DNA of 64,000 bases, from the sequence record KX828711. One strand, written 5' to 3'. Positions 13,695-60,499 of the stretch are shown here, in pieces. The translations under genes were made by a program, and so were the position numbers. The notes below the pieces were generated by a model. It worked only from the letters and a program-made list of their open reading frames with translations. It searched no databases and was not told where the DNA came from. The stretch is from Shigella phage SH7. Every line of letters begins with the position of its first letter. The stretch's first letter is position 1.

Positions 13695-14166
13695 TTGTTT
13701 TACCTAAAACAATAGTAGGAGCATCGTCAAATTCATGAATTTTTAGCAATTTTGGATTTAAATTATTCCATACATAATAAATGAAGTATGATAAAGCATC
13801 TTCACTCGCAATTATAAATTTATTTCCTTTATCTATTTTCCAGTCATATACTGAATCGTACGAATAAAAAGATAAAGGGTTATCATTATACTGTTCTGCG
13901 CTAACATTGATGTATTCGGATTTAGTAAATGCTTCAATTGCTCTAAACGGACTATTTGGAACAGTTTCAATAATTCCGATCTTTTTAAGTTTTATTTCAG
14001 CATCTTCTGGAACTGGCATTGAAACGAAATTTTCTACGAGATACATAGGATTACGATAACCCTTATCAATAATTACAGCTACAGTAATTGGAACATCTTT
14101 AGCAAATGACATGCTATTACTGCTAATATACATTTCAAACAAAATCGCTTCCATAATTTTCCTCAA
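13669..14166 (-). CDS. hypothetical protein
   Basis: 165-aa ORF. Confidence 0.4.
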
Positions 14167-48255: not shown

Positions 48256-48783
48256 TTATGCGAGTACCGTCTTTAACCGTTCTTCAAACTTCCGAAGAGT
48301 ATTCTGGCGTTCAGCTCTTTGCTTTTTGTAAGTTTCAATACGCTCTGAAATGAGAGTGTATCGTTCATTTACTGATTCTTTCATAAAATCAGGAATTTCA
48401 CGAGAAGCTTTAATCTCATCAAATTTATCAATAACAGCTTGCTCTTCAGCAATTAAGTTATCATACATCAAAATATCTTTCTTGATGAACTCAATATCTT
48501 CTTGAGTTACACGAGATAATTTAGATGCTTTATCCTTTTTGTACTGTTCGTTAGTATCACGAGACCAGTGTAATGTACGATTTTTATTCGTATTCTTATA
48601 AATTTCTACAATACCAATCTCATCAATAATAACGATCCAATTCCAACGGGATTTGTAAATTTGTCCTCCATCAACAGTGATTTCACCTCCGATTGAGATG
48701 TCATTAAAGAACTTGCTTTGTGCTTCAGATTTAAATTTACCATCGTTGTAATTTACCAGGTTGAAAATATCTTTAGCGTTCAT
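48256..48783 (-). CDS. hypothetical protein
   Basis: start at Met 21 (MNAKDIF); upstream residues are translated promoter. Confidence 0.45.
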   Translation of the reverse strand: MNAKDIFNLVNYNDGKFKSEAQSKFFNDISIGGEITVDGGQIYKSRWNWIVIIDEIGIVEIYKNTNKNRTLHWSRDTNEQYKKDKASKLSRVTQEDIEFIKKDILMYDNLIAEEQAVIDKFDEIKASREIPDFMKESVNERYTLISERIETYKKQRAERQNTLRKFEERLKTVLA

Positions 48784-48811
48784 TTTGTGTTCCTCCGTAG
48801 TTGATAGTTGT

Positions 48812-48841
48812 ATAGTACCACAGAGGAACGGTCTTGTAAAC
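48812..48841 (-). promoter_or_regulatory. early promoter, conserved TGGTACTATACAACTATCAACTA core
   Basis: near-identical to copy at 24080..24109. Confidence 0.6.
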
Positions 48842-48843
48842 AA

Positions 48844-49146
48844 CTAAAAGAAACTTCTTTCACAATTTTTTCCACTGAACCACGCACTCACTGCTTTCTT
48901 AGTCTCAGGAGCAGTGTTATCCATAAACCATTCAAAGGCAGCCTTTTTATGATTCTGGAGGGCTTCTCGGGCTTTAATCTGCTCACGGTCTATTAACACT
49001 AACATATGAGCCTTTCTTGTCACCAGGGGCTTCTTATGATTTTTTGAATACTCCCAATCATTTGTCCATCGCATCGTTGTTGCGAATTGAAGTACAGCTT
49101 CCTTAATCTTAGTTTCGTAAATTTCACGAGCCTTTGAGTATAACAT
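48844..49146 (-). CDS. hypothetical protein
   Basis: start at MLYSKAR with GGAGG SD. Confidence 0.4.
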   Translation of the reverse strand: MLYSKAREIYETKIKEAVLQFATTMRWTNDWEYSKNHKKPLVTRKAHMLVLIDREQIKAREALQNHKKAAFEWFMDNTAPETKKAVSAWFSGKNCERSFF

Positions 49147-49247
49147 CACTACCTCCATTTACCAGTTTAATTCTAATCATCTTTTTGATGGCAGTCCATA
49201 TAATCTATTTCTGAACTGCCTTTTTGTCATAGAAGGCCTCTTATGAA

Positions 49248-50216
49248 TTATTTCAGAAGAGTAACCTCAGCAATTTCTTCCCAACCGTTTTTGTCGGTCA
49301 TAATAAAGTCAGCAAGATAAAGTGCAGTACGCAGTGAAACATTGCGTAAACGATTAACATTAACTTTCATCCATGATAATGCTTTATAAGTTTCTTCATC
49401 AGAAAGACCACGTTTTTGCATCATGTCAGTTGAAAGAATAACATCTTCAACCCTGACCATAATTTCTTCATTAGTGTGAACACCCAAATCTAAATAAACT
49501 GAGCGGGACACTAATGCTTGTAAATGTGGAGCAAGTTTAGTACCACGGTCTAATTCGCGGTCAATGTCAACGTTTGTGATAAAAACAATCGTTCCTTTAA
49601 ATTCAAACTCACGCTCAATGCCTTTTTCTTCTAAGTAAGAAGATGCGGTGCTCCAGCAGACTTTACGGGTCTCTCCAGTGTCCAGAGCAGCTTTCAGAAG
49701 ATTAAGAATGTCCATATCAGAGAAAACATCCACATCATCAATCAAAAGGACAGAATTCTCTTCACGATTATTCCAAAGCTGTTCATAAAGACCGATACCA
49801 GAGATTTTACCATTAATGCTTTTATACTCAATGTATCCAATATCATTTGCTTTATTTAAAGCTTTATCTAAAGAATACGTTTTACCAATACCTGCTGCTC
49901 CCGAGATAATTAATGAACGAATGTTTCCGTTAATAATACCATTCGTCATCATTCCCATAACATTAAATCTTTTATTAATGCGGGTTTTCATATCTTCATA
50001 CGATTCTTTAACTTCTTCAACTTTTACACCATCATATGAAATGTCTGATTTGTAAACCCAAACACCGCGACGTTTACCGTCAATTTCAACAAAAACTTTA
50101 CCATCTCCTTGTGCATCTACCGGAGCATTATCTGGGAACCATTCGCCTAAGAGCTCAAAAGTTCCAGAGATTTCTTTACCGAAGTAGATACCCTTATTGA
50201 TAGTTACAGTTTTCAT
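49248..50216 (-). CDS. P-loop ATPase (AAA-like) with about 100-aa N-terminal domain
   Basis: Walker A SGAAGIGKT, Walker B VLLIDDVD. Confidence 0.55.
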   Translation of the reverse strand: MKTVTINKGIYFGKEISGTFELLGEWFPDNAPVDAQGDGKVFVEIDGKRRGVWVYKSDISYDGVKVEEVKESYEDMKTRINKRFNVMGMMTNGIINGNIRSLIISGAAGIGKTYSLDKALNKANDIGYIEYKSINGKISGIGLYEQLWNNREENSVLLIDDVDVFSDMDILNLLKAALDTGETRKVCWSTASSYLEEKGIEREFEFKGTIVFITNVDIDRELDRGTKLAPHLQALVSRSVYLDLGVHTNEEIMVRVEDVILSTDMMQKRGLSDEETYKALSWMKVNVNRLRNVSLRTALYLADFIMTDKNGWEEIAEVTLLK

Positions 50217-50273
50217 TTTATTCTCCTTTGATTTGATAGGACTACTATAACATAGTCCTATCAGTTTGTATAC

Positions 50274-50474
50274 TTATTTTGACATTTCTTCGATGTCACG
50301 ACGATACCCGTCACGAACTTCACGAAGAGCTTCAAGGCCACACATAGGCTCGATACCTGTAATGTGAACTTGATTAATCTGATACTCTACATCTTCTAAC
50401 TGAGCGAAAACATAACGACGTTCAGCTGCACAACCAGATTTAGCTTTACCGAAACGTTTATTCAAAGTAGTCAT
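50274..50474 (-). CDS. small hypothetical protein
   Basis: 66-aa ORF with own early promoter. Confidence 0.4.
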   Translation of the reverse strand: MTTLNKRFGKAKSGCAAERRYVFAQLEDVEYQINQVHITGIEPMCGLEALREVRDGYRRDIEEMSK

Positions 50475-50512
50475 TTTGTATCTCCAATTTACTCATTTGT
50501 TTTGATAGGTCT

Positions 50513-50542
50513 ATAGTATCAACAACTACAGACCATGTAAAC
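50513..50542 (-). promoter_or_regulatory. early promoter (TTTACA, 17 nt, TACTAT)
   Basis: sequence. Confidence 0.55.
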
Positions 50543-50569
50543 CGTTTTGTGAAAAATTTTTGAAATAAA

Positions 50570-50587
50570 AAAGGGAGCCCGAAGGCT
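50570..50587 (-). terminator. intrinsic terminator: UUCG-tetraloop hairpin plus U-run
   Basis: gggagcc-cgaa-ggctccc followed by T6 on minus strand. Confidence 0.65.
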
Positions 50588-50592
50588 CCCTA

Positions 50593-51606
50593 TCATTTAT
50601 AATAACTTCGATGGTTTTCAAGATAGACCTTCTCAAGGAAGTCATCCCAAAAACCCATGTCCACTTTTTGCTGCATACCGTTCTTAGAAGCTTCAGTAGA
50701 TGCTGCTTCTACTTGATCGACCACATCTTCCAAAAACTCTTGAACGGTTTTAAATGGATGTTTACCCAACTTCACGTCGAGAATAAATGGAGCATCTTGG
50801 AGTGGATAAACCAAGTCACCAGTTTTGTAAATTTCCAATAGTTGAAGTCCACCACGACAGGCATGGCTCAGAGCTTTCCAGTCAATGCCTTCGTTGGCTT
50901 CGGCCTTACGAGCACGTTCACCATATTCAGCATCTAATTTGTTCAGTGACTGCTTAAGCTCAATAAGAGAAAGCGTTGTCTGATATTTACGACCCAACAC
51001 AGTGTAAAACGTTTGTGGGCCTGTTTTCTCATGATTATGGAACACCCATTCACAGAATTCGTTTTCTGGAAGACGATGCTTAATATCTTCAACTTTGGTG
51101 TGACGCTGCTTAATAGAACCATCTTCTTGGTAATCAATCCACTGCTCAGGGATTTGATTAACTATTTTCAATACATCGCGTAATGCAGCCAAACGAGAAC
51201 CCTTGACACCGTATTTAGAAGCTTGCTTGCGAACATATCCTAAATAGGATTTCATGTTAGTCGTATAAAAACGAGAACGGTTGTCTTGAATAAACTTCCA
51301 CACATCAGGCAAATCAGATTTAACCACTAGTTCAGGTGGAGTGTGAAGCATATCCAATGCTACAGTTTCACCATCTGCTGCTAATTTAAAGAAATATTTA
51401 AGACTGTATAGTTCATGGTCAATATCATCTTTAGTGTTTTTAGATGATGTGTTGTTAGTGTTTTTACTCATGTGCTCTTTAACATTTCCAATAAGAATAT
51501 CACGAGCAGGAGGAACAAAAATTTCTTTAAAATCTACATCAGATTCTGGGGTAGAAGTTCCATAAAGATGACTACCAAAATAGCTTTTCATTACTGTTTT
51601 CATCAT
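50593..51606 (-). CDS. Pol-beta-superfamily nucleotidyltransferase-like protein (337 aa)
   Basis: N-terminal signature YFGSHLYGTSTPESDVDF (hGS-x9-SDxD); helical C-terminal domain; specific family undetermined. Confidence 0.5.
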   Translation of the reverse strand: MMKTVMKSYFGSHLYGTSTPESDVDFKEIFVPPARDILIGNVKEHMSKNTNNTSSKNTKDDIDHELYSLKYFFKLAADGETVALDMLHTPPELVVKSDLPDVWKFIQDNRSRFYTTNMKSYLGYVRKQASKYGVKGSRLAALRDVLKIVNQIPEQWIDYQEDGSIKQRHTKVEDIKHRLPENEFCEWVFHNHEKTGPQTFYTVLGRKYQTTLSLIELKQSLNKLDAEYGERARKAEANEGIDWKALSHACRGGLQLLEIYKTGDLVYPLQDAPFILDVKLGKHPFKTVQEFLEDVVDQVEAASTEASKNGMQQKVDMGFWDDFLEKVYLENHRSYYK

Positions 51607-52064
51607 TCAGCCTTATATTCAATAACAGGACATACTTTAGCTTTACGAGATTTTAAAAATTCAACGATAATCGATTTCTTGGGTTGAATAGGAGGTAAAC
51701 CTTTATACGCTCTATCAATATTTTCTACGTGTAAAGCATAATCCTTTTTCCATTTATAATCTTTATATTTTTCACGCAAATGTGCAGGAATAACAAATGA
51801 ACCGATAATAAGTAAAACAACCAAAAGCGCAAGTATAAATGCTGATGGAAGCAAAGTCCATAAACTACCAAAAATAAGCCAACGTTGTAGGCTTTCTGCA
51901 CAAATAATTGTTAGCCCTACGAGTATAGCACATCCAAAAATAGAAACGAAAAATGTAGGAATGGCAATAGACCAAAAATATGCGCATAGTGTCTTAGGTC
52001 GTTGCCATTCATCGTTAAACAATTTGAATAATTTATAGTGCCAAGAGTTTTCATTAATAATCAT
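51603..52064 (-). CDS. multi-pass membrane protein, translationally coupled to the NTase gene
   Basis: 153 aa; two long hydrophobic blocks; ATGA stop/start overlap. Confidence 0.45.
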   Translation of the reverse strand: MIINENSWHYKLFKLFNDEWQRPKTLCAYFWSIAIPTFFVSIFGCAILVGLTIICAESLQRWLIFGSLWTLLPSAFILALLVVLLIIGSFVIPAHLREKYKDYKWKKDYALHVENIDRAYKGLPPIQPKKSIIVEFLKSRKAKVCPVIEYKAE

Positions 52065-52066
52065 AA

Positions 52067-52588
52067 TTATCCTTTCATTGAAGGCGTAACAGTTGTTAAA
52101 TACTTAATCATAGCTTCAGCTTCTGATTTTGATAATGAAATTTCTCCATTGTTTTGACGAATAGAAATAAAATCCGGATGACGGTCACCACCAGCTTTTA
52201 AAACACACATATAAGTATCAACTTCATCTTCAATATTTGAAATGATTGAAGCAGTTCCACATGAATGCGGTTTTTGATAAATCAATGCAGCTTTTCTTCC
52301 GCCATTTGACTGTTCATAAACTTTTAATACATCAAACAAATCACTTCTTTTATCAATAGCTAAAATGTTATTTTCATCTTCAATGTTAAATCCTTCGGAT
52401 ACTTCATAAAGTGTCACCCATAAATCGCCAATATCAATAACAGCGTTCACTTTTCCATGACTTTCAAGAGCATGACAAATTTTCTTGATTTCGTCATAAC
52501 TCATTTTAATAATATCATCTCCTTGAATAAGAAAGATGTCATTTTTAAATTCAACACGAATTAAACCACTTCCACTTGAAATAAACAT
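52067..52588 (-). CDS. hypothetical protein, tandem paralog A
   Basis: 173-aa ORF; shared motifs with next gene. Confidence 0.45.
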   Translation of the reverse strand: MFISSGSGLIRVEFKNDIFLIQGDDIIKMSYDEIKKICHALESHGKVNAVIDIGDLWVTLYEVSEGFNIEDENNILAIDKRSDLFDVLKVYEQSNGGRKAALIYQKPHSCGTASIISNIEDEVDTYMCVLKAGGDRHPDFISIRQNNGEISLSKSEAEAMIKYLTTVTPSMKG

Positions 52589-52594
52589 ATTTCC

Positions 52595-53140
52595 TCACTT
52601 TGAAATCATAGTTGGAATGACAGAATCAAGATAAGTCTTTAGTGCAATAGCTTCGTCTTTGGTAAATGTGACAATATGTGCTCGAAAATCATCAATTTGA
52701 CGAATAGTTAAGACATCTCCATCTTCATAACATTTTGATACGTTTAAAACAGTTTCATCATTCTGATCGCAAGCGTTAGTAATAATAGCATTGCAATTTT
52801 TAAACCATTTTAAACTATGTTTTCTTTCATTAGAATAATAAAAATATTTAATCTTATCTATAAAACTATCCCAATGGATAACTGATAAGCATATTGACTC
52901 GCTTTCAATATTAAATCCTGGGCATGAAGAATAAAAATGAATTTTATGCTCATCATTAATGCTTACAATTTTATCAGTATAAGGATTTTCAATTTTGGTT
53001 AAATGAATGATTTCACTAGGCGTAAAATACAGCATATCGTCTTCTTGTGTCAAACGATACATATTATTTACTTTTTCTATAGCCAATTCACCAAAAAGTG
53101 AACTAACTTCTAATACTAATCGTTTCGCCGCTACCGTCAT
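52595..53140 (-). CDS. hypothetical protein, tandem paralog B
   Basis: 181-aa ORF. Confidence 0.45.
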   Translation of the reverse strand: MTVAAKRLVLEVSSLFGELAIEKVNNMYRLTQEDDMLYFTPSEIIHLTKIENPYTDKIVSINDEHKIHFYSSCPGFNIESESICLSVIHWDSFIDKIKYFYYSNERKHSLKWFKNCNAIITNACDQNDETVLNVSKCYEDGDVLTIRQIDDFRAHIVTFTKDEAIALKTYLDSVIPTMISK

Positions 53141-53272
53141 TACATACTCCTCTGAATCATATCAATAATGTTGTTCACCAGATTATAAGTAAACATTGGG
53201 TAATTATATTGAATCACCACATACACAACAAACAAAACTTTCATTCTCTTCTCCTTGGCAGTTGACAAGATT

Positions 53273-53302
53273 ACTATACCATAACCTTGCCAACTTGTAA
53301 AC
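53273..53302 (-). promoter_or_regulatory. early promoter (TTTACA, 17 nt, TATAGT) heading the 53.1-50.6 kb operon
   Basis: sequence. Confidence 0.55.
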
Positions 53303-53467
53303 CATTAAATGACGTTTTCGATAAAATTCTGAAGCTTTGTATGAGCATCAACCATGATTTTCATTTCTTCCTTTGCGAAAGCTGTACCTCTTTCACGAGA
53401 AGAACATTCATAGTCAGAAACTGCATTAGCATATTCTTCAATTAGCTTCATTAAAAACATCTGCTTT

Positions 53468-53662
53468 TCAGTTTTCATTATTCCACCTAATCATTTCAAG
53501 ATATTGAACTAACTTAGCTTTGGATTTATCCAAATCCTTTTTAGCTGCTTCTATACCGTCGTATGAATATCCTTCACAATGCTCAACTGCTAATTGATAT
53601 GAATCTATTTCAATATCACGTGCTAATTTAATGATTTTTTCAAACTGTTCGCGTGTTAGCAT
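53468..53662 (-). CDS. small helical protein (M-x-T/S-R/K-EQ family)
   Basis: 64-aa ORF. Confidence 0.4.
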   Translation of the reverse strand: MLTREQFEKIIKLARDIEIDSYQLAVEHCEGYSYDGIEAAKKDLDKSKAKLVQYLEMIRWNNEN

Positions 53663-53664
53663 AC

Positions 53665-53868
53665 TTAAACTCTCGTATTATGATCGATAATTTCATCAAG
53701 AAACATATCTAACGCTTCTACAGCATTATTAACTTTATCTTCAAGTTCTTCAATACTTTTATTTGCAATGCCTGACGAAAACCAAGCAAAGTCACTAAGT
53801 TCCTCATCTGCTTTACGAATTAAAGCTACCAATTCCTTAATTTTATCCGCTTGTTCGATACTAATCAT
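53665..53868 (-). CDS. small helical protein (same family)
   Basis: start at internal Met [13 protein letters not shown]. Confidence 0.4.
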   Translation of the reverse strand: MISIEQADKIKELVALIRKADEELSDFAWFSSGIANKSIEELEDKVNNAVEALDMFLDEIIDHNTRV

Positions 53869-54056
53869 TATTCCACCACATATGAAAGAGAGAATATTGC
53901 ACACGCCATGTGAGTTGCAACTTCATCACACATATTATAACGTTTCTTAAGAAATTCTACAAGTTCTTCACTAGTAACTTCATCCATGTCGACGAAAAAA
54001 TCACCATTAATGATGACGTAGATATTTCCTTCTTGATTAAGTGCTTCAATTTTCAT
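53868..54056 (-). CDS. small acidic protein
   Basis: start at Met 16 MKIEALNQ; upstream is promoter. Confidence 0.4.
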
Positions 54057-54084
54057 GATGTTCTCCTCTTTATCCGATAGTTGT

Positions 54085-54114
54085 ATAGTACCACAGCTCA
54101 AACGGAAAGTAAAC
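54085..54114 (-). promoter_or_regulatory. early promoter with conserved TGGTACTATACAACTATC core
   Basis: third copy of the conserved cassette. Confidence 0.6.
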
Positions 54115-54129
54115 CGGTAAAATGAAAAA

Positions 54130-54147
54130 AGTCTCCCGAAGGAGACT
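54130..54147 (-). terminator. intrinsic terminator: UUCG hairpin plus U-run
   Basis: agtctcc-cgaa-ggagact then T6. Confidence 0.65.
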
Positions 54148-54151
54148 AATG

Positions 54152-54538
54152 TTATTCGAGGGAAAGAAGATACTTACTCTGGTAAAACATTCCAGTAATA
54201 TCATCTATCGTGCTTTGGATGGCTGGAGGCATTTCTTTATAAATGCTGTTAGATTGGTCTAGTATGTGATCAATCATTTTAATTGTGTCGGTAGGAAGTT
54301 TACTGGCATCTGGAATTGAAGGTGTGTATTTTCTACCAGAATACCCCAAATATTGCTCACCAAATTTATCAATCAAATCTGGCAACTCGGAGAAAATAAA
54401 ATCGTATGCTTTGTGTCTAGCATAACTTTTAGTTTCAAAATGTGCAGAATGAAAATAAGCTTGTGCAGCCATTAATAAACCTAAGTATTCATCTGCCTTT
54501 GAAGGTTTTCCACTTTGTGAAAAGTCGCTGAATTTCAT
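54152..54538 (-). CDS. hypothetical protein (rI.-1 position)
   Basis: 128-aa ORF. Confidence 0.45.
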
Positions 54539-54828
54539 TCAGTCTCCAATTTAATGTTCATAATTCTAGCGTATGATTGTGCCATCTCCGCGCCTCGTTC
54601 TATACATTCAAAATCAGAAGAGCACGGGTCATTTTTATAGGTCGTTCTCATAAAACTATAGAATTGTTCAGACGATTCTACGCTTTTATTTTCAAAAAGC
54701 ATATAAACGTGCCTAATACCAGATTCCATAAATTTATCAAAATGAGGATCGACATTCGCTTCAATCGATGGAGATAAAACAAATGACAATCCTAGCATGG
54801 CAAATAGTGCCGTTGCTTTTAAGGCCAT
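54535..54828 (-). CDS. rI: lysis-inhibition regulator RI (antiholin)
   Basis: 97 aa; N-terminal signal-anchor segment; size and position match T4 RI. Confidence 0.7.
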   Translation of the reverse strand: MALKATALFAMLGLSFVLSPSIEANVDPHFDKFMESGIRHVYMLFENKSVESSEQFYSFMRTTYKNDPCSSDFECIERGAEMAQSYARIMNIKLETE

Positions 54829-54840
54829 AAAGGCCTCCTA

Positions 54841-55053
54841 TCATTTTTGTCCTGTATTTACTTTATGCCGATGCACGGCCTTAACTTTATCAAGGTATTT
54901 TTCAAAATTTCGCAATCTAGTATAGTCTGCCGGAGATTGGTTGAGTGATACTTCTCGACGCAAAGCTGAAATAACATTTCCAACTTCCCTACGAATTTCA
55001 TCTAATTGAAGCACAGTAAGATTGCGAAGTTGCTTTTCAGTTAATTGTAACAT
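54841..55053 (-). CDS. small hypothetical protein (rI.1 position)
   Basis: 70-aa ORF. Confidence 0.4.
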
Positions 55054-55095
55054 ATATACCCCTTTAGTTAGATAAACCTATTTATAACTTTTGCA

Positions 55096-55677
55096 CTAAC
55101 CGAGCTTTTTAGTTAATTCATTCCAATGTTTTCTACACAAAGAAACATAAATTTCATCGCCAATACAGATTTGATTACCCTCTTTAACTGGTGTTCCATC
55201 TTCCATTAATCGAGCTGTCATAATCGCTTTTTTACCACAATGACAAACTGCCTTTAGTTCAATAAGTTTATCTGCAATCGCTAAAAGTTCTTTAGAACCT
55301 TCAAACAATTTTCCAGCGAAATCAGTCCTTAATCCATAAGCCATAACAGGAACATTATATGTATCAACAATTCGGCTCAATTGATGCACCTGTTCAGTTT
55401 TTAAAAACTGAGCTTCATCTACAAATACGCAATGAATATCTTTTTGTGCTTCAGCCCATTTATAGAACTCGAAAATATCCATATCATCTGTAATAATATT
55501 CGCTTCCTGCTTAATTCCAATGCGAGAAACGACTTCACAGACAGAATCGCGAGTATCAATAGCAGGCTTAAGAACTAATACACTCATTCCACGTTCTTTA
55601 TAATTATGTGCAGCAGTCAAAAGAGAAGCAGATTTTCCAGCATTCATTGCTGCATAAGTAAAAATTAAACTCGCCAT
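55096..55677 (-). CDS. tk: thymidine kinase
   Basis: 193 aa; Walker A NAGKSA; C-terminal Zn motif CHCG...C. Confidence 0.85.
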   Translation of the reverse strand: MASLIFTYAAMNAGKSASLLTAAHNYKERGMSVLVLKPAIDTRDSVCEVVSRIGIKQEANIITDDMDIFEFYKWAEAQKDIHCVFVDEAQFLKTEQVHQLSRIVDTYNVPVMAYGLRTDFAGKLFEGSKELLAIADKLIELKAVCHCGKKAIMTARLMEDGTPVKEGNQICIGDEIYVSLCRKHWNELTKKLG

Positions 55678-55678
55678 C

Positions 55679-55867
55679 TTAGTCCTTAGTTAAATTTTCT
55701 AAATATGTTTCTAAATCATTTTCAACTTTATCGATAGATTTTACTAATTCGTAATATGTTTCGGCATCTCCATATTCAGAAGATATTTCAAAAGACAAAT
55801 CCTTTTCTAAACTAATAATTTCACCAACTAAAAATAATATTTCGTTCTTTTGTTCGCGAGTAATCAT
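55679..55867 (-). CDS. small helical protein (M-x-T/S-R/K-EQ family)
   Basis: 62-aa ORF. Confidence 0.4.
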   Translation of the reverse strand: MITREQKNEILFLVGEIISLEKDLSFEISSEYGDAETYYELVKSIDKVENDLETYLENLTKD

Positions 55868-56049
55868 AAGGAATTTATATAATTAATAAGTTCTTGTTCT
55901 TTATTATCGAATTCTTTAGAAAGTTCTTCGTACTCGTTTGCACTAAAAGGACCGCATTCATTACAAACTTTTTCCAATTCACTATTTTTATCCATAACTT
56001 CGTGGATAAGAGAAAAGAGTTTGTCTTTTTGTTCTTTGCTTAGGCTCAT
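55864..56049 (-). CDS. small helical protein (same family)
   Basis: 61-aa ORF. Confidence 0.4.
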   Translation of the reverse strand: MSLSKEQKDKLFSLIHEVMDKNSELEKVCNECGPFSANEYEELSKEFDNKEQELINYINSL

Positions 56050-56219
56050 ATATTAATTTCCAGAAGTTTTAAAATAATTCGCTTTTGCTTAAATATTTCC
56101 ACAGTTAAATGATCAGTATCTTTTTGACCAATTCCAATGGCAAAACCTTTATTAACAGCGAGTTCAATTAAATTATCAAGTTCACGTAACACTTCATATT
56201 GTAACTCAGAACTATTCAT
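56046..56219 (-). CDS. 57-aa hypothetical protein
   Basis: own translation MNSSELQYEVLRELDNLIEL...; ATGA overlaps at both ends. Confidence 0.35.
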   Translation of the reverse strand: MNSSELQYEVLRELDNLIELAVNKGFAIGIGQKDTDHLTVEIFKQKRIILKLLEINI

Positions 56220-56428
56220 TTCGGTTTACCTTCTTTAACGAAATCTGGATAAGGATAAAATCCCGAATAAAATCCTTCACCTTTATGATTGATGCATCCT
56301 TTATTAGAACAATAGCACCAATAATCGAAATCACAAACCATTTCATCGTTGCATAAAGCAAAAACAACCGGCCATTTACACTTTTCACAGTGGGCATTTT
56401 TAAGAATACTAGTTTGGCTCATAACCAT
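56216..56428 (-). CDS. Cys-rich small protein
   Basis: 70-aa ORF with 9 Cys (CEKCKW...CNDEMVCDFDYWCYCSNKGC). Confidence 0.4.
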   Translation of the reverse strand: MVMSQTSILKNAHCEKCKWPVVFALCNDEMVCDFDYWCYCSNKGCINHKGEGFYSGFYPYPDFVKEGKPK

Positions 56429-56646
56429 GTCACCTTTAAGCAGTATTCTTCTACATGCTGTTTACGACCTTTCTTATCAATAAAGGTATATTCAACGAAT
56501 GTTCCAATGTAGTCTTTATCTACATCATGTGGACTATTAATTGGACATTTAGTACGGCAAATGCGTTCCCATTGACGAATAATTACTGCCTTATTCTTTG
56601 GGTCATACGGATGTGGATAATGTATATTCATAATAACGGTTCCCAA
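56419..56646 (-). CDS. small hypothetical protein
   Basis: 75-aa ORF. Confidence 0.35.
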   Translation of the reverse strand: MGTVIMNIHYPHPYDPKNKAVIIRQWERICRTKCPINSPHDVDKDYIGTFVEYTFIDKKGRKQHVEEYCLKVTWL

Positions 56647-57095
56647 TCAACAATCACAATTTCTAATTTAGAGGAATATGTATCTAAAATCCCCTCAATA
56701 ATATCCCAGTTCCCTTTACCTATGCCTGCTCCAATCCTAGGCATATAAATTGTAGGTTTAATCAGTTTATTTTCACCAAACTCATTTAATTCTAACATAC
56801 AATTCATTAAAGCGGAATACTCAAAATTTGGCCCTGGTTGAAATTGAGTATAAAGATTAAAGCAATACGCTTTATGAGTCCTAAAGTATTTTTCATAGAC
56901 TGAGTAAGAACCGAGTTTAGTTACATCACCCCATTCAGTCTGTAATTTATCAGCTTCCAAAATTTTAGGGAAAGCTTTGGTTAATTGACCTGCGACTCCA
57001 GCTTTCATCGCGTGAAAACAATTACATCCATGCGCAATATTTTTACCTTCAGCGAAAAGGGCGACAATATCGCCCTTGATATATTTTACAATCAT
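56628..57095 (-). CDS. macro-domain-like protein
   Basis: 155 aa; GDI...AHGCNCFHAMKAGVAGQL and PRIGAGIGKGNW resemble macro-domain NAAN/GGGV and G-I-G-G loops. Confidence 0.45.
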   Translation of the reverse strand: MIVKYIKGDIVALFAEGKNIAHGCNCFHAMKAGVAGQLTKAFPKILEADKLQTEWGDVTKLGSYSVYEKYFRTHKAYCFNLYTQFQPGPNFEYSALMNCMLELNEFGENKLIKPTIYMPRIGAGIGKGNWDIIEGILDTYSSKLEIVIVDWEPLL

Positions 57096-57439
57096 CTAGT
57101 ACTCAATCCTCGATTATAAGAATCTACCAAACGGTCAACCATTGAATGACAAGCGGCTTTATCTTTCTCCTCCGCAACTGAACATTCTAAGGTATTCCAC
57201 TTTTTAGCATATCGTTTTAATAATGTATCGTTTTTGTATCTACTTGATTTATCTCTTTCTCCGTCTTTATATGCATATATTAATTTCTGTGCAAATTCAG
57301 CTTGACATGCTTTATTTTTCCCACAATAATCTGCCGCAGTGCGGTTTACATATTCTCTAATTTCAGTATATGATGTATCTGCTGATGCAGAAGCAGAAAA
57401 TGAAATTAATCCTATACATAAAACCAAAATTTTAGTCAT
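57092..57439 (-). CDS. secreted hypothetical protein
   Basis: 115 aa; cleavable signal peptide; conserved Cys pairs. Confidence 0.4.
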   Translation of the reverse strand: MTKILVLCIGLISFSASASADTSYTEIREYVNRTAADYCGKNKACQAEFAQKLIYAYKDGERDKSSRYKNDTLLKRYAKKWNTLECSVAEEKDKAACHSMVDRLVDSYNRGLSTR

Positions 57440-57977
57440 TTACTATTTCCAAAAGTTTATTATTTTTAAGGTAATTAGCCTTTTCTAGGACTTCAGAAGC
57501 ATATTTAGAACCAGCTTTAACATTCCATCCCGAATTATAAGAGGATATTGCTTTTCTTATATCGCCCTTATGTATATTTAACCAATAAGAAAGTTCAATG
57601 TACGCCCAGGAAGCTGAATTGGATCGTTTATTCAACATTCTTTTTATTTCAGCATCGGTCATATTATAACCAAGTTCCTTAACTCTTGCTCGCATAGTAG
57701 GCAAATAATTTTGGAACATTCCGTAGGCGTGATGCTTTGGTTTAGATTTTAAATTAACTCCGCCAGAGCTTTCTTGCCATAAAATAGCAGCCATTATATG
57801 ACCTAATCCGCTCTTGTGGATATTTTTGTGTGTTTTATATTTTCCATCCTTAGAAAATTGTTCCCCGAATTGATACGCGTAACGCATGTTATCGAGTTGG
57901 ACATTACTGAAAGTATGCTCGGAGCTATGTGCCATCATTGAAATGGCCAATAGACCAGCGAGTAGTGCTTTTCTCAT
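57432..57977 (-). CDS. periplasmic lytic-transglycosylase-like (SLT) protein
   Basis: 181 aa; signal peptide; catalytic-type WQESSGG and YGMFQ motifs. Confidence 0.55.
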   Translation of the reverse strand: MRKALLAGLLAISMMAHSSEHTFSNVQLDNMRYAYQFGEQFSKDGKYKTHKNIHKSGLGHIMAAILWQESSGGVNLKSKPKHHAYGMFQNYLPTMRARVKELGYNMTDAEIKRMLNKRSNSASWAYIELSYWLNIHKGDIRKAISSYNSGWNVKAGSKYASEVLEKANYLKNNKLLEIVND

Positions 57978-57984
57978 GCTTACC

Positions 57985-58446
57985 TCATTGAGTTTTAATT
58001 ACTGCTTTAGAAGCCTTTCCTGGTAAACGACGACTGTTGATAATTGCCATCCTACATTGAAGTGACGGGTCTTTGAACTTCTCGTTAGGTTTACAAACTG
58101 TAAATCCAAGCCAAAGATTTCCATCTGTGATTTCTAAACGTCCAGGACGATATTCAACCCCATCAATAAAATCCTCGTCAATGTCAGGACGCGGAGGCAT
58201 TCTCAGGAATTCATTAACTTCTAAAACATGGTCTTTTATTTTATGGAATAATTCAAAAACGTATGTCTCATCAATCTCCCGTTGAATTGCACGATCAAGA
58301 AGATGTTGAGAATATTTTAGATGAAACGATGAGACCCCTGCTGCTTTTGATGCCTCACGAATCTCATTGTTAATTTGACGAAACTCCGACTCAAAGTGAC
58401 GACGAAGCTTATTTCGACGGATAAAAACTTCAGTGTTGATAGTCAT
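57985..58446 (-). CDS. regB: RegB endoribonuclease
   Basis: 153 aa, size identical to T4 RegB; position between vs cluster and tk. Confidence 0.65.
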   Translation of the reverse strand: MTINTEVFIRRNKLRRHFESEFRQINNEIREASKAAGVSSFHLKYSQHLLDRAIQREIDETYVFELFHKIKDHVLEVNEFLRMPPRPDIDEDFIDGVEYRPGRLEITDGNLWLGFTVCKPNEKFKDPSLQCRMAIINSRRLPGKASKAVIKTQ

Positions 58447-58473
58447 GTTATTCTCCTCTTAACTGATAGAAAA

Positions 58474-58503
58474 ATTATACCACAGTCAAGAGGAAAAGTA
58501 AAC
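58474..58503 (-). promoter_or_regulatory. early promoter (TTTACT, 17 nt, TATAAT)
   Basis: sequence. Confidence 0.55.
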
Positions 58504-58505
58504 AG

Positions 58506-58784
58506 TTATTCTTTAAATCTAATCAATTTATTCATAGACTTTGAAACTTCGGCACGAACCTCATGTAGATTTTTGAGCTGTTCAAGACGCTGCGTATAGT
58601 AAGCAATTTCATCTTCTTCGAGACAGTCCTGCGAATCTTCTTTAAGATAACGTGCATAGTCCTGGAAAGCGTTACGGATTACTTCCTGGAAGTCATCAAG
58701 ACTTTGAATTTTCTTAGGAGCAGCAGATACACGACGAGGGGCAGTATAATACTCATAACCAAACCCTGCGCTTAATTGAGCCAT
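58506..58784 (-). CDS. small acidic protein (vs.3/vs.4 position)
   Basis: start at internal Met MAQLSAGF. Confidence 0.4.
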
Positions 58785-59050
58785 TAGTATTTTTCCTCTG
58801 GTTGGAACACTGCACGACAAGCCCACATACTGGCTTCTTTGAGTTTCGTTTTAGCAATAGTTAACTGATCGAGGCTTTCAGCATAATTCTTCGCGAATTC
58901 ACAGTCTTCACAATTATCTAGTGCTTCCCAGAATTCATCGTATAAAGCGTCAAAGATAAGTCCTAAACGAACTTCAGCGTCTTTGATAGCATTCACTTTA
59001 CCGATTTTCTCTTCAGTATGTGGCTTATAACCCTTAATGTCTTCAATCAT
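58784..59050 (-). CDS. small acidic protein (vs.4/vs.5 position)
   Basis: ORF; start chosen to minimise overlap. Confidence 0.35.
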
Positions 59051-59264
59051 ATTTAACTTCCTCACCAGTACATAAATCATATTCAACTAAACGAATAGGT
59101 TCATGAATGCCATATCCCTGAACAGAAATTTCTGTCGTAGGATAAATTCCACTAATATCACCCATATTCCACGCTTCATTAAATTGCTGTTCGCCTGAAT
59201 TACTAAACCATTCTGCGAAAGCATTTAGCACATCTTTAGAACCTTCAATAATTATCTTTGCCAT
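59043..59264 (-). CDS. small hypothetical protein
   Basis: 73-aa ORF. Confidence 0.4.
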   Translation of the reverse strand: MAKIIIEGSKDVLNAFAEWFSNSGEQQFNEAWNMGDISGIYPTTEISVQGYGIHEPIRLVEYDLCTGEEVKYD

Positions 59265-59626
59265 TACAGACTCTCAGTAAAGGTACGAGCGATAACGTCG
59301 CGCTGCTGTTCCGGAGTCAGAGAGTTAAAGCGAACTGCATAACCGGATACACGGATGGTCAGCTGCGGATATTTTTCCGGATGCTTAACTGCATCTTCCA
59401 GAGTTTCACGACGCAGAACGTTAACGTTCAGGTGTTGACCACCTTCAATTTTAACTGTAGGTTGTGTTTCAATTTCAATTTCACGGGCGTGCAAACCATA
59501 GAAAATTTCTGGGTCTACAAAAGAGTCCTCTTTAAAGGTTTTAGAGACAATAATTCGCGCTTGAATACCATCTTCAAAATAAATAGTACCTTTATGCGTG
59601 CCTTCAAGAATTTGATATGCTTTCAT
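59264..59626 (-). CDS. autonomous glycyl-radical cofactor (GrcA/YfiD-like)
   Basis: 120 aa; C-terminal glycyl-radical fingerprint RVSGYAVRF as in pyruvate formate-lyase. Confidence 0.7.
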
Positions 59627-59633
59627 ATAAACC

Positions 59634-59963
59634 TCAATTAGAAAATAAATTTATCCAAGATTGTTCTTTAATTAAAAATGGCTCAGAATCATATGCCATT
59701 AAACTTTGCGTAATTAATCCTTTAAAAGGTCCATCAATAAATTCCATGGTAAAATATGGAATTTTATTCATTAGCCGTGCATTAGGAGCCGTGCACAAAA
59801 CTCTGCATCCTTTGAATACGCCTTTTTGTAATTTGTATTGCTTAGGATAAAATTCACTTAAAATGTTATTTTTTGCCAAAATTTCAAAATGATTCACCAA
59901 TTTATTTTTAATAGTTTTTGGTGAAAAATAAAGATATTCAAAAAGTTGCGCATCTGTCATCAT
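59634..59963 (-). CDS. hypothetical protein
   Basis: start at MMTDAQ; ATGA overlap with upstream gene. Confidence 0.4.
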
Positions 59964-60499
59964 TGCATTCCGATTACGAAAAACTGTGGACGAGTAATAC
60001 CACCAATACAACATTTAATATTACAGCAGCAGTGTACAGTGTCAATATGGACGCTATAAATCTTATCCATATCAGGAGATTTGACAGGCTCATCAATTAT
60101 ATACAAAATTCGCGAAAGCGATAAACCTCTGAACTTGCTTCCTTTATTACCAATAAAACTGCGCACAGAATCAGTAAATAAACGAAAACGTATATCATCA
60201 TTAGAATAACGCGAAAATTCCTTTTTAATGTTATTTGCAGAAATTTTAGCGTAAGCTGAAGTATTAGAAAGAACAATAACTGTTCCGCCATCATACAGCC
60301 AATTAGCAGCAAAGTTAGTCACAGCAATTGATTTACCGGATTGACGTCCACCATCTAGTCGAAGTGTGCAATACTGTTTAAGTAATTCTTCAAATGGCGG
60401 AATATATTCGTTTTTACAAATTTCTTCTACTCTAGCATCAGAATGGTGTGTAAAAGCATTCATCAGGGATAGATAAGGACCAGTTAAAAATGTTCTCAT
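59960..60499 (-). CDS. P-loop protein with C-terminal Cys cluster
   Basis: 179 aa; Walker A-like GGRQSGKS; HCCCNIKCC near C-terminus. Confidence 0.45.
   Translation of the reverse strand: MRTFLTGPYLSLMNAFTHHSDARVEEICKNEYIPPFEELLKQYCTLRLDGGRQSGKSIAVTNFAANWLYDGGTVIVLSNTSAYAKISANNIKKEFSRYSNDDIRFRLFTDSVRSFIGNKGSKFRGLSLSRILYIIDEPVKSPDMDKIYSVHIDTVHCCCNIKCCIGGITRPQFFVIGMQ

Follow-up and report, generated by a model that had tools for sequence, protein, structure and literature searches.

The mobD.2–nrdC.11 early gene cluster of Shigella phage SH7 and its RlaP-family nucleotidyltransferase

A compact group of minus-strand genes in Shigella phage SH7 is the known mobD.2–nrdC.11 early gene cluster of T2/T4-type Tequatrovirus, and the last of these genes encodes a Pol-beta nucleotidyltransferase (NTase) of the RlaP family; from this we infer an RNA-repair role in T-even phages. 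Five tightly packed, co-oriented genes lie between a single conserved promoter of early type and a single hairpin terminator. Taken as a whole, it is fairly probable that the locus is an early transcription unit of the form mobD.2, mobD.1, (mobD.1 paralogue), (two-TM-segment protein), nrdC.11, in which the RlaP NTase is a dispensable counter-defence accessory acting in RNA repair and the other genes are syntenic, non-obligate neighbours. The cluster is already known; its genes all belong to families that Pfam or PHROG has defined, and the NTase has been placed in RlaP in print. The window, that is, the whole stretch of 64,000 nucleotides that was analysed (record KX828711), is Tequatrovirus DNA; it has 98% identity to phage Ozark and, outside two indels, 95-98% to T4, and the gene names used here come from the T4 annotation.

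The unit begins with a putative early-type sigma-70 promoter at 53273..53301 on the minus strand (TTTACA-17-TATAGT with an extended -10 TG), for which transcription is predicted to start near 53266. This is the best match within the 7.5 kb from 48500 to 56000, with agreement at 10 of 12 positions, and its hexamers are identical in T4 (13990..13962 of the extracted locus, L001) and in RB69 (2146..2174 of L003), so that the early promoter proposed in the original prediction is upheld. A consensus search of the coding strand within the unit gave neither a T4 late (TATAAATA) nor a MotA-box match. At the other end, an intrinsic terminator at 50562..50591 on the minus strand was found by scanning; it consists of an 8-bp G+C-rich stem at 50572-50591 with a UUCG loop, followed by a U-run (the T-run at 50562-50571), and the hairpin has a free energy of -17.3 kcal/mol (z -3.5). 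It is identical in T4; the annotation of the near-identical phage KAW1E185 lists it as a terminator, and RB69 has, at the equivalent position, a UUCG hairpin whose stem differs. The hairpin and U-run had been recognised before, but at coordinates about 4 nt off.

Between these signals, the first gene is mobD.2 (53140..53244, minus strand; 34 aa), which is preceded by an AGGAG Shine-Dalgarno sequence and matches phrog_3515 (E 5e-22). It lies between the promoter and mobD.1, is annotated in T4 and KAW1E185, and has a visible but unannotated homologue in RB69. The original prediction had described four genes in the bracket: the promoter and terminator do flank co-oriented genes, but mobD.2 had been overlooked and there are five. 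The four minus-strand ORFs that it listed (181, 173, 153 and 337 aa) were all confirmed at the same positions, and a Shine-Dalgarno-like sequence precedes each of them.

The second and third genes form a tandem pair, as had been proposed. The 181-aa MobD.1 (T4 Y05I; 52595..53140, minus strand) is a two-domain protein that matches PF24449 (130.4 bits, E 4e-38) and PF24448 (74.4 bits, E 9e-21), and the 173-aa product of the following gene (52067..52588, minus strand), which is not in T4, matches the same two families with 118.5 and 81.2 bits, respectively. These scores are all above the gathering scores (24.9 for PF24449 and 27 for PF24448), with E-values across both proteins of about 1e-21 to 1e-38, and the two proteins align with each other at 30% identity in BLASTP (E 5e-11). 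The mobD.1 DNA region aligns with T4 at 95% identity. MobD.1 was found in 725 phage records and its paralogue in 453, 432 of them with at least 90% identity. Pfam labels the T4_y05I domains as a 'putative transcription factor', a label that would apply by family only; a search of the PDB with the MobD.1 family profile yielded only noise (E>=0.09) and no relative.

The fourth gene (51603..52064, minus strand), also not in T4, encodes a 153-aa protein that belongs to phrog_944 ('membrane protein'). Hydropathy confirms the two long hydrophobic blocks noted earlier as two TM segments, at about residues 27-56 and 62-95, and the charge distribution, which includes 15 K/R in a 58-aa C-terminal tail, predicts an N-in, C-in topology. 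In alignments of the family, the motifs SWHYK and LCxYFW are conserved in the N-terminal part, and the basic C-terminal tail ends with KVCPxIEY. The protein occurs in 849 phage records. No match above noise was obtained in Pfam, NCBIfam or PADLOC, and no effector or sensor domain was recognised; neither this protein nor the NTase has a paralogue elsewhere in the window. The ATGATGA junction between this gene and the NTase gene was confirmed: a start at the first ATG makes the genes overlap by 4 nt (ATGA), and a start at the second makes the junction TGATG, in which case the NTase has 336 rather than 337 residues. Note that in KAW1E185 neighbouring genes overlap or abut at 8 of 24 junctions; therefore, the overlap here is weak evidence for a specific coupling.

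The last gene, nrdC.11 (50593..51606, minus strand; phrog_388, E 2e-136), encodes the 337-aa NTase. It is 97% identical in amino acid sequence to T4 NrdC.11 and has the same genomic position, in agreement with the original suggestion that homologues might exist as unnamed nrdC.x ORFs of T-even phages. The Pol-beta signature noted at its N-terminus was borne out by a Pfam match, a structural model and matches to NTase folds. The protein could also be placed in a specific family, which had been thought impossible from the sequence: residues 7-135 match PF10127 (RlaP) with 44.1 bits against a cut-off of 23 (E 2.7e-11), and 119 of 120 diverse homologues (33-55% identity) match the same model. In fact, T4 NrdC.11 has been named as a member of RlaP, in cluster 5 of the sequence similarity network (SSN) of PF10127, in a 2025 preprint (PMC12776372). 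The homologue family comprises 3700 representative clusters at E<=1e-3, the top matches listed being mostly full-length, and the NTase was found in 1516 phage records.

An AlphaFold (AF2) model calculated from the 120-sequence alignment (33-55% identity) has a pLDDT of 94.5 and a pTM of 0.83 and consists of a Pol-beta NTase domain and a helical domain; a calculation from 24 close homologues (78-99% identity) gave a pLDDT of 54.6 and was unusable. All the motifs of Pol-beta NTases, namely hG[GS], [DE]x[DE] and a further conserved carboxylate, are present. G11 and S12 are invariant, and at least 90% of the 120 sequences retain D23, D25, D61, D63 and D85; in the model, D23 and D25 are located at the start of strand 24-31 and D61 and D63 at strand 62-68, and the third metal ligand may be D63 or D85. 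NrdC.11 is an RlaP-family Pol-beta NTase whose GS / DxD / acidic active site is intact and whose C-terminal domain is helical and HEPN-like; what connects it with RlaP is the Pfam score above threshold, the conserved GS / DxD / acidic residues and an NTase-plus-helical layout in the model. This layout seems to agree with that described for PfRlaP (N-terminal NTase domain, helical domain and terminal helix; PMC12776372), where the comparison is with the description only. The conserved basic residues K131, K135, R138, R231, K244, R251 and K279 are consistent with the positively charged RNA cleft reported for PfRlaP. The C-terminal half also contains a beta-rich insert of about 55 residues (155-209), which lies outside the Pfam model.

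In BFVD, many phage NTases match the model, and the closest solved fold is Hailong HalB, over the NTase core only. Sequence searches of the PDB with the single protein and with 9-sequence, 120-sequence and NTase-domain-only profiles gave nothing meaningful, with no chain matched. Kanamycin nucleotidyltransferase ANT(4') and the JCSG structure 3c18 align with about 8-10% identity and TM-scores of 0.24-0.37 and show no sequence-level match, and a small-molecule substrate is not indicated.

T-even phages have a complete Pnkp/Rnl1 tRNA-repair pathway; Pnkp, Rnl1 and Rnl2 are all encoded away from nrdC.11. By analogy with bacterial RlaPs, and following the RlaP hypothesis of Burroughs and Aravind, NrdC.11 would extend the 3'-OH end of cleaved RNA by one or two NMPs. 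Among possible substrates, the most plausible would be the 5' half that remains when a 'smart' anticodon nuclease (RloC, for instance) has removed a nucleotide from a host tRNA. With its own Pnkp and RNA ligase, whose genes lie in other parts of T-even genomes, the phage could afterwards make the tRNA functional again, and NrdC.11 would act as a dispensable counter-defence accessory. Bacterial RlaPs add 1-2 NMPs to RNA 3'-OH and use neither DNA nor protein as a substrate, an activity shown for two Pseudomonas RlaPs only; they prefer a 3' end resembling that of a cleaved anticodon loop, and repair of a tRNA that is one nucleotide short improves its aminoacylation (PMC12776372). It is argued in the RlaP literature that repair without restoration of the nucleotide yields an inactive tRNA (PMC12776372). 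Anticodon nucleases of the RloC type cut out the wobble nucleotide (PMC2610378). In jumbo phages, the presence of RlaP tracks that of RNA ligases (PMC7824862). The T4 region from nrdC.11 to mobD.3 can be deleted (PMC9825161). If NrdC.11 does restore the excised nucleotide, T-even phages already hold a counter-move to RloC-type nucleases. The value of the locus is that it allows this unsettled point in the long-studied contest of tRNA cleavage and repair in T4 to be tested directly. No experiments on NrdC.11 itself were found in the searchable literature.

The genomic context differs from that of the assayed enzymes. The Pseudomonas RlaPs reside in RtcB-RtcA operons and belong to another SSN cluster, whereas the SH7 clade has the insert of about 55 residues, a Pfam match confined to the N-terminal part and no adjacent RNA ligase. 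Neither in the unit nor in 3-5 kb of flank did we find an RNA ligase, Pnkp or RtcA/B in T4, KAW1E185, RB69 and eleven other phage loci, so that the 'ligase-associating' context is missing here; the contigs of six distant metagenomic NTase homologues, most of them short, likewise had no RNA ligase neighbour. Such a neighbourhood is not a requirement for membership of PF10127. Because NrdC.11 is in a different SSN cluster from the assayed enzymes, its substrate and product could differ from theirs.

Alternative activities were considered for the enzyme. NrdC.11 could be an RNA 3'-end NTase with another substrate, serving in tRNA 3'-CCA restoration, transcript tailing for stability or RNA marking, which we regard as rather unlikely. 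The bacterial RlaPs labelled rRNA-, tRNA- and tRNA-fragment-sized E. coli RNAs and used all four NTPs with little specificity, the T-even locus has no adjacent RNA ligase, and the clade-specific insert at 155-209 might alter the choice of substrate. In addition, a CCA-adding enzyme lies two genes upstream of the NTase in Barba19A, the only such locus among those examined, and a ProQ_C-like, RNA-chaperone-type protein (Pfam E 1e-13) overlaps or abuts the NTase start in Roth88, with an apparent counterpart in leE that resembles it in the N-terminal part only; as RNA-related surroundings, these neighbours are equally in keeping with the RNA-repair reading. However, the RlaP preference was for the cleaved-anticodon-loop-like end, whose repair improved aminoacylation. 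The T-even Pnkp/Rnl1 pathway is also just what an enzyme with that preference would complement. A protein-modifying activity of the MntA type, by which NrdC.11 would AMPylate and neutralise host HEPN RNase toxins (such as PrrC, RloC, RnlA or HepT) instead of repairing RNA, is highly improbable: the NCBIfam MntA match that suggests it is faint (E 0.06; 13.2 bits against a cut-off of 60), no MNT model exceeds its cut-off while PF10127 exceeds its curated one, and the assayed RlaPs left E. coli proteins unlabelled.

The relation between the NTase and the membrane gene can be examined in natural variants. In T4, the promoter, terminator, mobD.2, mobD.1 and nrdC.11 are shared with SH7 at 95% DNA identity, but the HNH homing endonuclease gene mobD (T4 56450-57257) replaces window positions 51608-52569, that is, the 173-aa paralogue and the 153-aa membrane gene, and nrdC.11 is intact. 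Besides T4, 47 records have mobD in that place; the SH7-type allele, with paralogue and membrane gene, is commoner (about 430 records). Among 66 loci of the membrane family in IMG/VR, 30 have an NTase 0-2.3 kb downstream on the same strand and 36 have none within 6 kb, and the latter share no neighbour family. The membrane gene is thus not obligate, because T4 keeps nrdC.11 without it, the NTase occurs in 1516 records against 849, and 36 of the 66 loci lack an NTase within 6 kb; the 153-aa protein accompanies the enzyme in some lineages only and is not a signalling partner that it requires. Of the adjacent genes, those for the Y05I-type and two-TM-segment proteins are the pair more tightly conserved, and the NTase is far more widespread alone. 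Within Tevenvirinae, the membrane gene stays 0-3 genes from the NTase, and in one metagenomic contig (L018) it is adjacent on the opposite side; these two observations hint at a real linkage that synteny does not fully cover. Both alleles occur in nature, one with the membrane gene and paralogue (T2 type) and one with mobD instead (T4 type), so that the relevance of these neighbours can be assessed by a clean comparison.

The original prediction had suggested that the NTase and membrane genes might form an undescribed module, with a CBASS/Pycsar-like system among the options. This CBASS/Pycsar-like reading is unsupported: the NTase belongs to RlaP, T4 lacks the membrane gene, the two families are often unlinked, and no SMODS, cGAS or PADLOC match was obtained. 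Specifically, the SMODS, cGAS and CD-NTase profiles gave no match, no CD-NTase was among the matches of the fold search, and PADLOC gave no match for five proteins (the four listed originally and a fifth, NrdC.10), on which ground CBASS, Pycsar or another known defence system was rejected. All that CBASS and Pycsar share with the SH7 locus is the idea of a nucleotide-handling enzyme gene beside a small membrane protein gene; no cyclase profile matched either, and the membrane protein has no nucleotide-sensing domain. In Hailong, HalB makes poly-dA by protein-primed synthesis, and HalA forms a tetrameric channel that bears a cytoplasmic crown (PMC13434031). The likeness of NrdC.11 to HalB is limited to 121 residues of generic NTase core, with no sequence signal or PADLOC match, and the SH7 pair differs in its small membrane protein with two TM segments, its non-obligate association and, as it appears, its NTase family.

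Nevertheless, the NTase and the membrane protein, perhaps with a Y05I-type protein, might cooperate in a phage-borne version of Hailong, CBASS or Pycsar logic, in which an oligonucleotide or tailed RNA gates, or is handled by, the membrane protein; possible roles would be superinfection exclusion, lysis timing or a decoy that holds a host HalA-type channel closed. The order of membrane gene then NTase gene with an ATGA overlap in both SH7 and RB69, the abutting genes in Dhakavirus, the 30 linked loci, the adjacency kept in reversed order in L018, and the conserved aromatic and basic cytoplasmic motifs with the 15 K/R tail all argue for such cooperation. We still consider it improbable, in view of the intact NTase in T4 and the 47 other records without the membrane gene, the far wider NTase family, the 36 membrane loci without NTase, the commonness of such junctions, the generic nature of the HalB likeness, and the one to three unrelated genes that separate the pair in Jiaodavirus, Gelderlandvirus, Kanagawavirus and Hadassahvirus. 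Moreover, assayed members of RlaP add only 1-2 nucleotides to RNA 3' ends (PMC12776372). A stricter form, in which the Y05I_C-domain protein, the two-TM-segment protein and the NTase constitute a real phage module, with the NTase or its RNA/oligonucleotide product coupled through the basic cytoplasmic tail as a viral Hailong-like counterpart or antagonist, is very improbable; if it were true, the mobD homing endonuclease would have turned T4 into a natural knockout.

Finally, two mis-annotations of genes in this region are widespread: NrdC.11 is often called 'thioredoxin', and MobD.1 or MobD.4 is called 'molybdopterin-guanine dinucleotide biosynthesis protein MobD'.

The 337-aa nucleotidyltransferase (NTase) encoded at 50593-51606 on the minus strand is NrdC.11, an already catalogued member of the RlaP family (Pfam PF10127). 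It matches PF10127 with 44.1 bits (cut-off 23) and the 'nucleotidyltransferase' family phrog_388 with an E-value of 2e-136, and it is 97% identical to NrdC.11 of T4. An exhaustive profile search with the NTase collects 3700 representative clusters at E<=1e-3, including 1050 that reach 1e-30 or better, and most of the best 150 matches among these clusters are full-length alignments; PF10127 is matched by 119 of the 120 relatives at 33-55% identity. The original prediction of a new CBASS-like or undescribed system is not borne out. Judged by its sequence, the source of the window is a Tequatrovirus: it shares 98.3% identity with Escherichia phage vB_EcoM_Ozark over 50400-53400, a region matched by 738 phage records. 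Both the nrdC.11 stretch (window 50502-51607, T4 55344-56449) and the stretch from mobD.1 through rI (window 52570-55331, T4 57258-59998) align to T4 at 95% identity. Therefore, the region corresponds to the T-even nrdC.11/mobD region, as had been suspected.

When calculated from a diverse alignment, the AlphaFold model of the NTase reaches a pLDDT of 94.5 and a pTM of 0.83 (pLDDT 54.6 with close relatives only). From the N-terminus, it comprises an alpha/beta NTase domain (up to about residue 118), a long helix (119-151), an insert rich in beta structure (155-209) and a helical domain (214-308), with one more helix at the end of the chain (317-336). Except for the insert, the PfRlaP crystal structure is described as having the same layout (PMC12776372). 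The insert, which comprises about 55 residues in the NrdC.11 clade, is poorly conserved in sequence and begins past the end of the Pfam match (residue 135). G11 and S12 are invariant, and D23, D25, D61, D63 and D85, as well as basic residues of the helical domain, are at least 90% conserved; by this conservation the predicted active site is intact. In the model, D63 is part of a strand and D85 part of a helix; both are candidates for the third metal ligand. The proposed assignment to Pol-beta-type NTases holds.

As relayed in two later papers (PMC12776372, PMC7824862), Burroughs and Aravind named RlaP after the RNA ligases with which it is associated and predicted a role in putting back nucleotides that cleaved RNAs have lost. 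Two RlaPs from Pseudomonas were characterised by Carruthers, Fatma and Huang (bioRxiv, December 2025; PMC12776372). These enzymes add one or two NMPs onto RNA 3'-OH ends, favour a 3' end mimicking a broken anticodon loop, are inactive on DNA and protein, and raise the aminoacylation of repaired tRNA that previously had one nucleotide missing. In the PF10127 similarity network of the same study, T4 NrdC.11 belongs to cluster 5. RloC, a known anticodon nuclease, cuts out the wobble nucleotide (PMC2610378). By analogy with these relatives, the most likely mechanism is that NrdC.11 would restore nucleotides at damaged RNA 3' ends, after which phage repair enzymes would ligate the RNA. Our literature search found no published experiment on NrdC.11 itself. 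T4 is viable without the segment from nrdC.11 to mobD.3 (PMC9825161), so nrdC.11 is an accessory gene.

Some neighbours of the NTase gene in other phages hint at a connection with RNA. In Rheinheimera phage Barba19A, which is not T4-like, a CCA-adding tRNA nucleotidyltransferase (PF01743 according to the annotation of the record) is encoded two genes upstream of the NrdC.11 homologue (locus L009, 1747-4400). In Klebsiella phage Roth88 (locus L010, 3127-3504), the gene for a protein with the RNA-chaperone-type domain PF24203 (Phage_ProQ_C_like, E 1e-13) abuts the NTase start. In Cronobacter phage leE (locus L013, 2621-3007), the end of the gene at this position overlaps the NTase start by 4 nt, and its product has an N-terminal sequence resembling that of the Roth88 protein.

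The four ORFs of the original prediction are all found as described, namely those of the NTase, a 153-aa membrane protein (51603-52064), a 173-aa protein (52067-52588) and a 181-aa protein (52595-53140), but the gene count was short by one: mobD.2 (53140-53244, minus strand, 34 aa; phrog_3515, E 5e-22), annotated in T4 and in the near-identical phage KAW1E185, had been overlooked. A Shine-Dalgarno-like sequence precedes every gene of the unit. The early-type promoter (53301..53273, minus strand; TTTACA-17-TATAGT with TG before the -10 hexamer) surpasses every other promoter match within 7.5 kb, and its hexamers and spacing are the same at the corresponding sites of T4 and RB69. Since the proteins of this unit in RB69 share only about 45-80% identity with their counterparts in the window, this points to conservation of the promoter. 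The terminator (50591..50562, minus strand) has an 8-bp G+C stem, a UUCG loop and a T-run (-17.3 kcal/mol, z = -3.5 against shuffles); it is identical in T4, and RB69 has a UUCG hairpin with another stem at the same position. A consensus search found no T4 late promoter or MotA box inside the unit. The best reading is a single predicted early transcription unit, in agreement with the operon proposed previously, whose genes are indeed bracketed by promoter and terminator.

Directly past the terminator there is a second early-type promoter (50541..50513, minus strand; TTTACA-17-TACTAT with TG), whose leader resembles that downstream of the RB69 promoter, 'cctatcaaaacaaatg' being common to both. 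It probably drives a 66-aa ORF (50274-50474, minus strand; phrog_6200, E 1e-35) and nrdC.10. The ORF is contained in a 275-bp segment (50227-50501) between the terminator and second promoter on one side and nrdC.10 on the other; T4 is without this segment and has only 13 bp there, and in RB69 and KAW1E185 the same position is occupied by a small ORF. NrdC.10 (49248-50216, minus strand, 322 aa), in the next transcription unit, gives sub-threshold P-loop matches (AAA_14, AAA_22 and nSTAND3, E 6e-5 to 5e-4) and weak clamp-loader PHROG matches, and a gene annotated nrdC.10 comes after the NTase region in T4, RB69, QL01 and PEi20. Upstream of the unit, another UUCG-loop hairpin terminator with a 7-bp stem and a T-run (54130-54147, minus strand) comes just after the ORF 54152-54538, which occupies the T4 rI.-1 position; the KAW1E185 annotation contains an equivalent terminator.

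A question arises as to whether the membrane protein and the NTase are truly coupled, to which we assign a small residual chance. In Tevenvirinae, the two genes keep to within a few genes of one another. We saw their order swapped only once, in a metagenomic T4-like contig (locus L018, 6001-7479; Logan ERR12379741), where the NTase gene comes first and the membrane gene follows directly after 37 bp. This is a weak hint at a real linkage; no Y05I gene was seen near this membrane gene. However, T4 argues against an obligate pair: there, nrdC.11 is kept intact, and the HNH homing endonuclease gene mobD (T4 56450-57257) takes exactly the place that the membrane gene and most of the gene for the 173-aa paralogue have here (window 51608-52569). 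mobD is found at >=95% identity in 47 records, and among the matches listed (17 of the 47) it is beside or overlaps an annotated nrdC.11 or nucleotidyltransferase gene. The record counts also differ: of 50,697 phage records, 1516 contain the NTase and 849 the membrane protein, and MobD.1 and its paralogue occur in 725 and 453.

Gene order is a further point against an obligate pair. Direct adjacency is limited to Tequatrovirus, Mosigvirus and Dhakavirus. In Kanagawavirus, Jiaodavirus, Gelderlandvirus and an Acinetobacter phage, the two genes are separated by one to three unrelated ones. The surroundings of the NTase gene in Aeh1, a Vibrio schizoT4 phage, Slopekvirus, Pseudotevenvirus, Tulanevirus and Barbavirus yielded no membrane-family gene. 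When IMG/VR is scanned with the membrane family as a seed, the NTase is located 0-2.3 kb downstream in 30 of 66 loci, but none is found within 6 kb at the other 36, which carry more divergent members and for which no other common conserved neighbour was found. The ATGA overlap of the two genes likewise counts against an obligate pair, because junctions of this type are common in these phages (in KAW1E185, 8 of 24 gene junctions overlap or abut). We read the association as lineage-limited synteny. In Escherichia phage NRG-P0074, a mobD-like endonuclease match (H207; PQ480333.1 111182-111955, 74% identity) covers an annotated homing endonuclease, nucleotidyltransferase and membrane protein together, and a homing endonuclease may lie here between the two genes without loss of either.

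The membrane protein, correctly recognised as such, has two hydrophobic segments (about 27-56 and 62-95) separated by a short loop, an N-terminal segment of 26 aa and a C-terminal tail of 58 aa. This layout and the charge of the tail (15 K/R and 8 D/E) suggest that both termini are cytoplasmic. Its family keeps SWHYK and LCxYFW motifs and a KVCPxIEY-type C-terminus, and its sole match is a PHROG labelled 'membrane protein'. In six genera, a Y05I-type gene is directly upstream: Tequatrovirus, Mosigvirus and Dhakavirus have the full-length version, and Jiaodavirus (L004 1596-1820), Kanagawavirus (L014 1741-1956) and Gelderlandvirus (L005 1809-2057) have a stand-alone C-terminal domain (PF24448, T4_y05I_C) of 71-82 aa. 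Therefore, the conserved adjacent pair is the Y05I_C domain and the two-TM protein, a tighter linkage than that of membrane protein and NTase. Of the 30 IMG/VR loci having both the membrane family and the NTase, 26 also carry a Y05I-type gene.

The 181-aa protein is MobD.1 (T4 Y05I), of which the 173-aa protein represents a diverged tandem copy; the predicted paralogy is confirmed by 30% identity (E 5e-11) and by the domains PF24449 and PF24448 common to both. Pfam labels these domains 'putative transcription factor', for which we found no experimental support, and no solved relative was found. One protein (P0164, alignment A5) is a natural chimera of the MobD.1 N-terminal domain and the paralogue C-terminal domain, and looks as if it arose by recombination between the tandem genes or by a deletion between them. 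In public annotations, MobD.1 and MobD.4 are called 'molybdopterin-guanine dinucleotide biosynthesis protein MobD'. NrdC.11 is called 'HNH homing endonuclease' in one public record and is commonly mislabelled 'thioredoxin', presumably inherited from the gene name nrdC.
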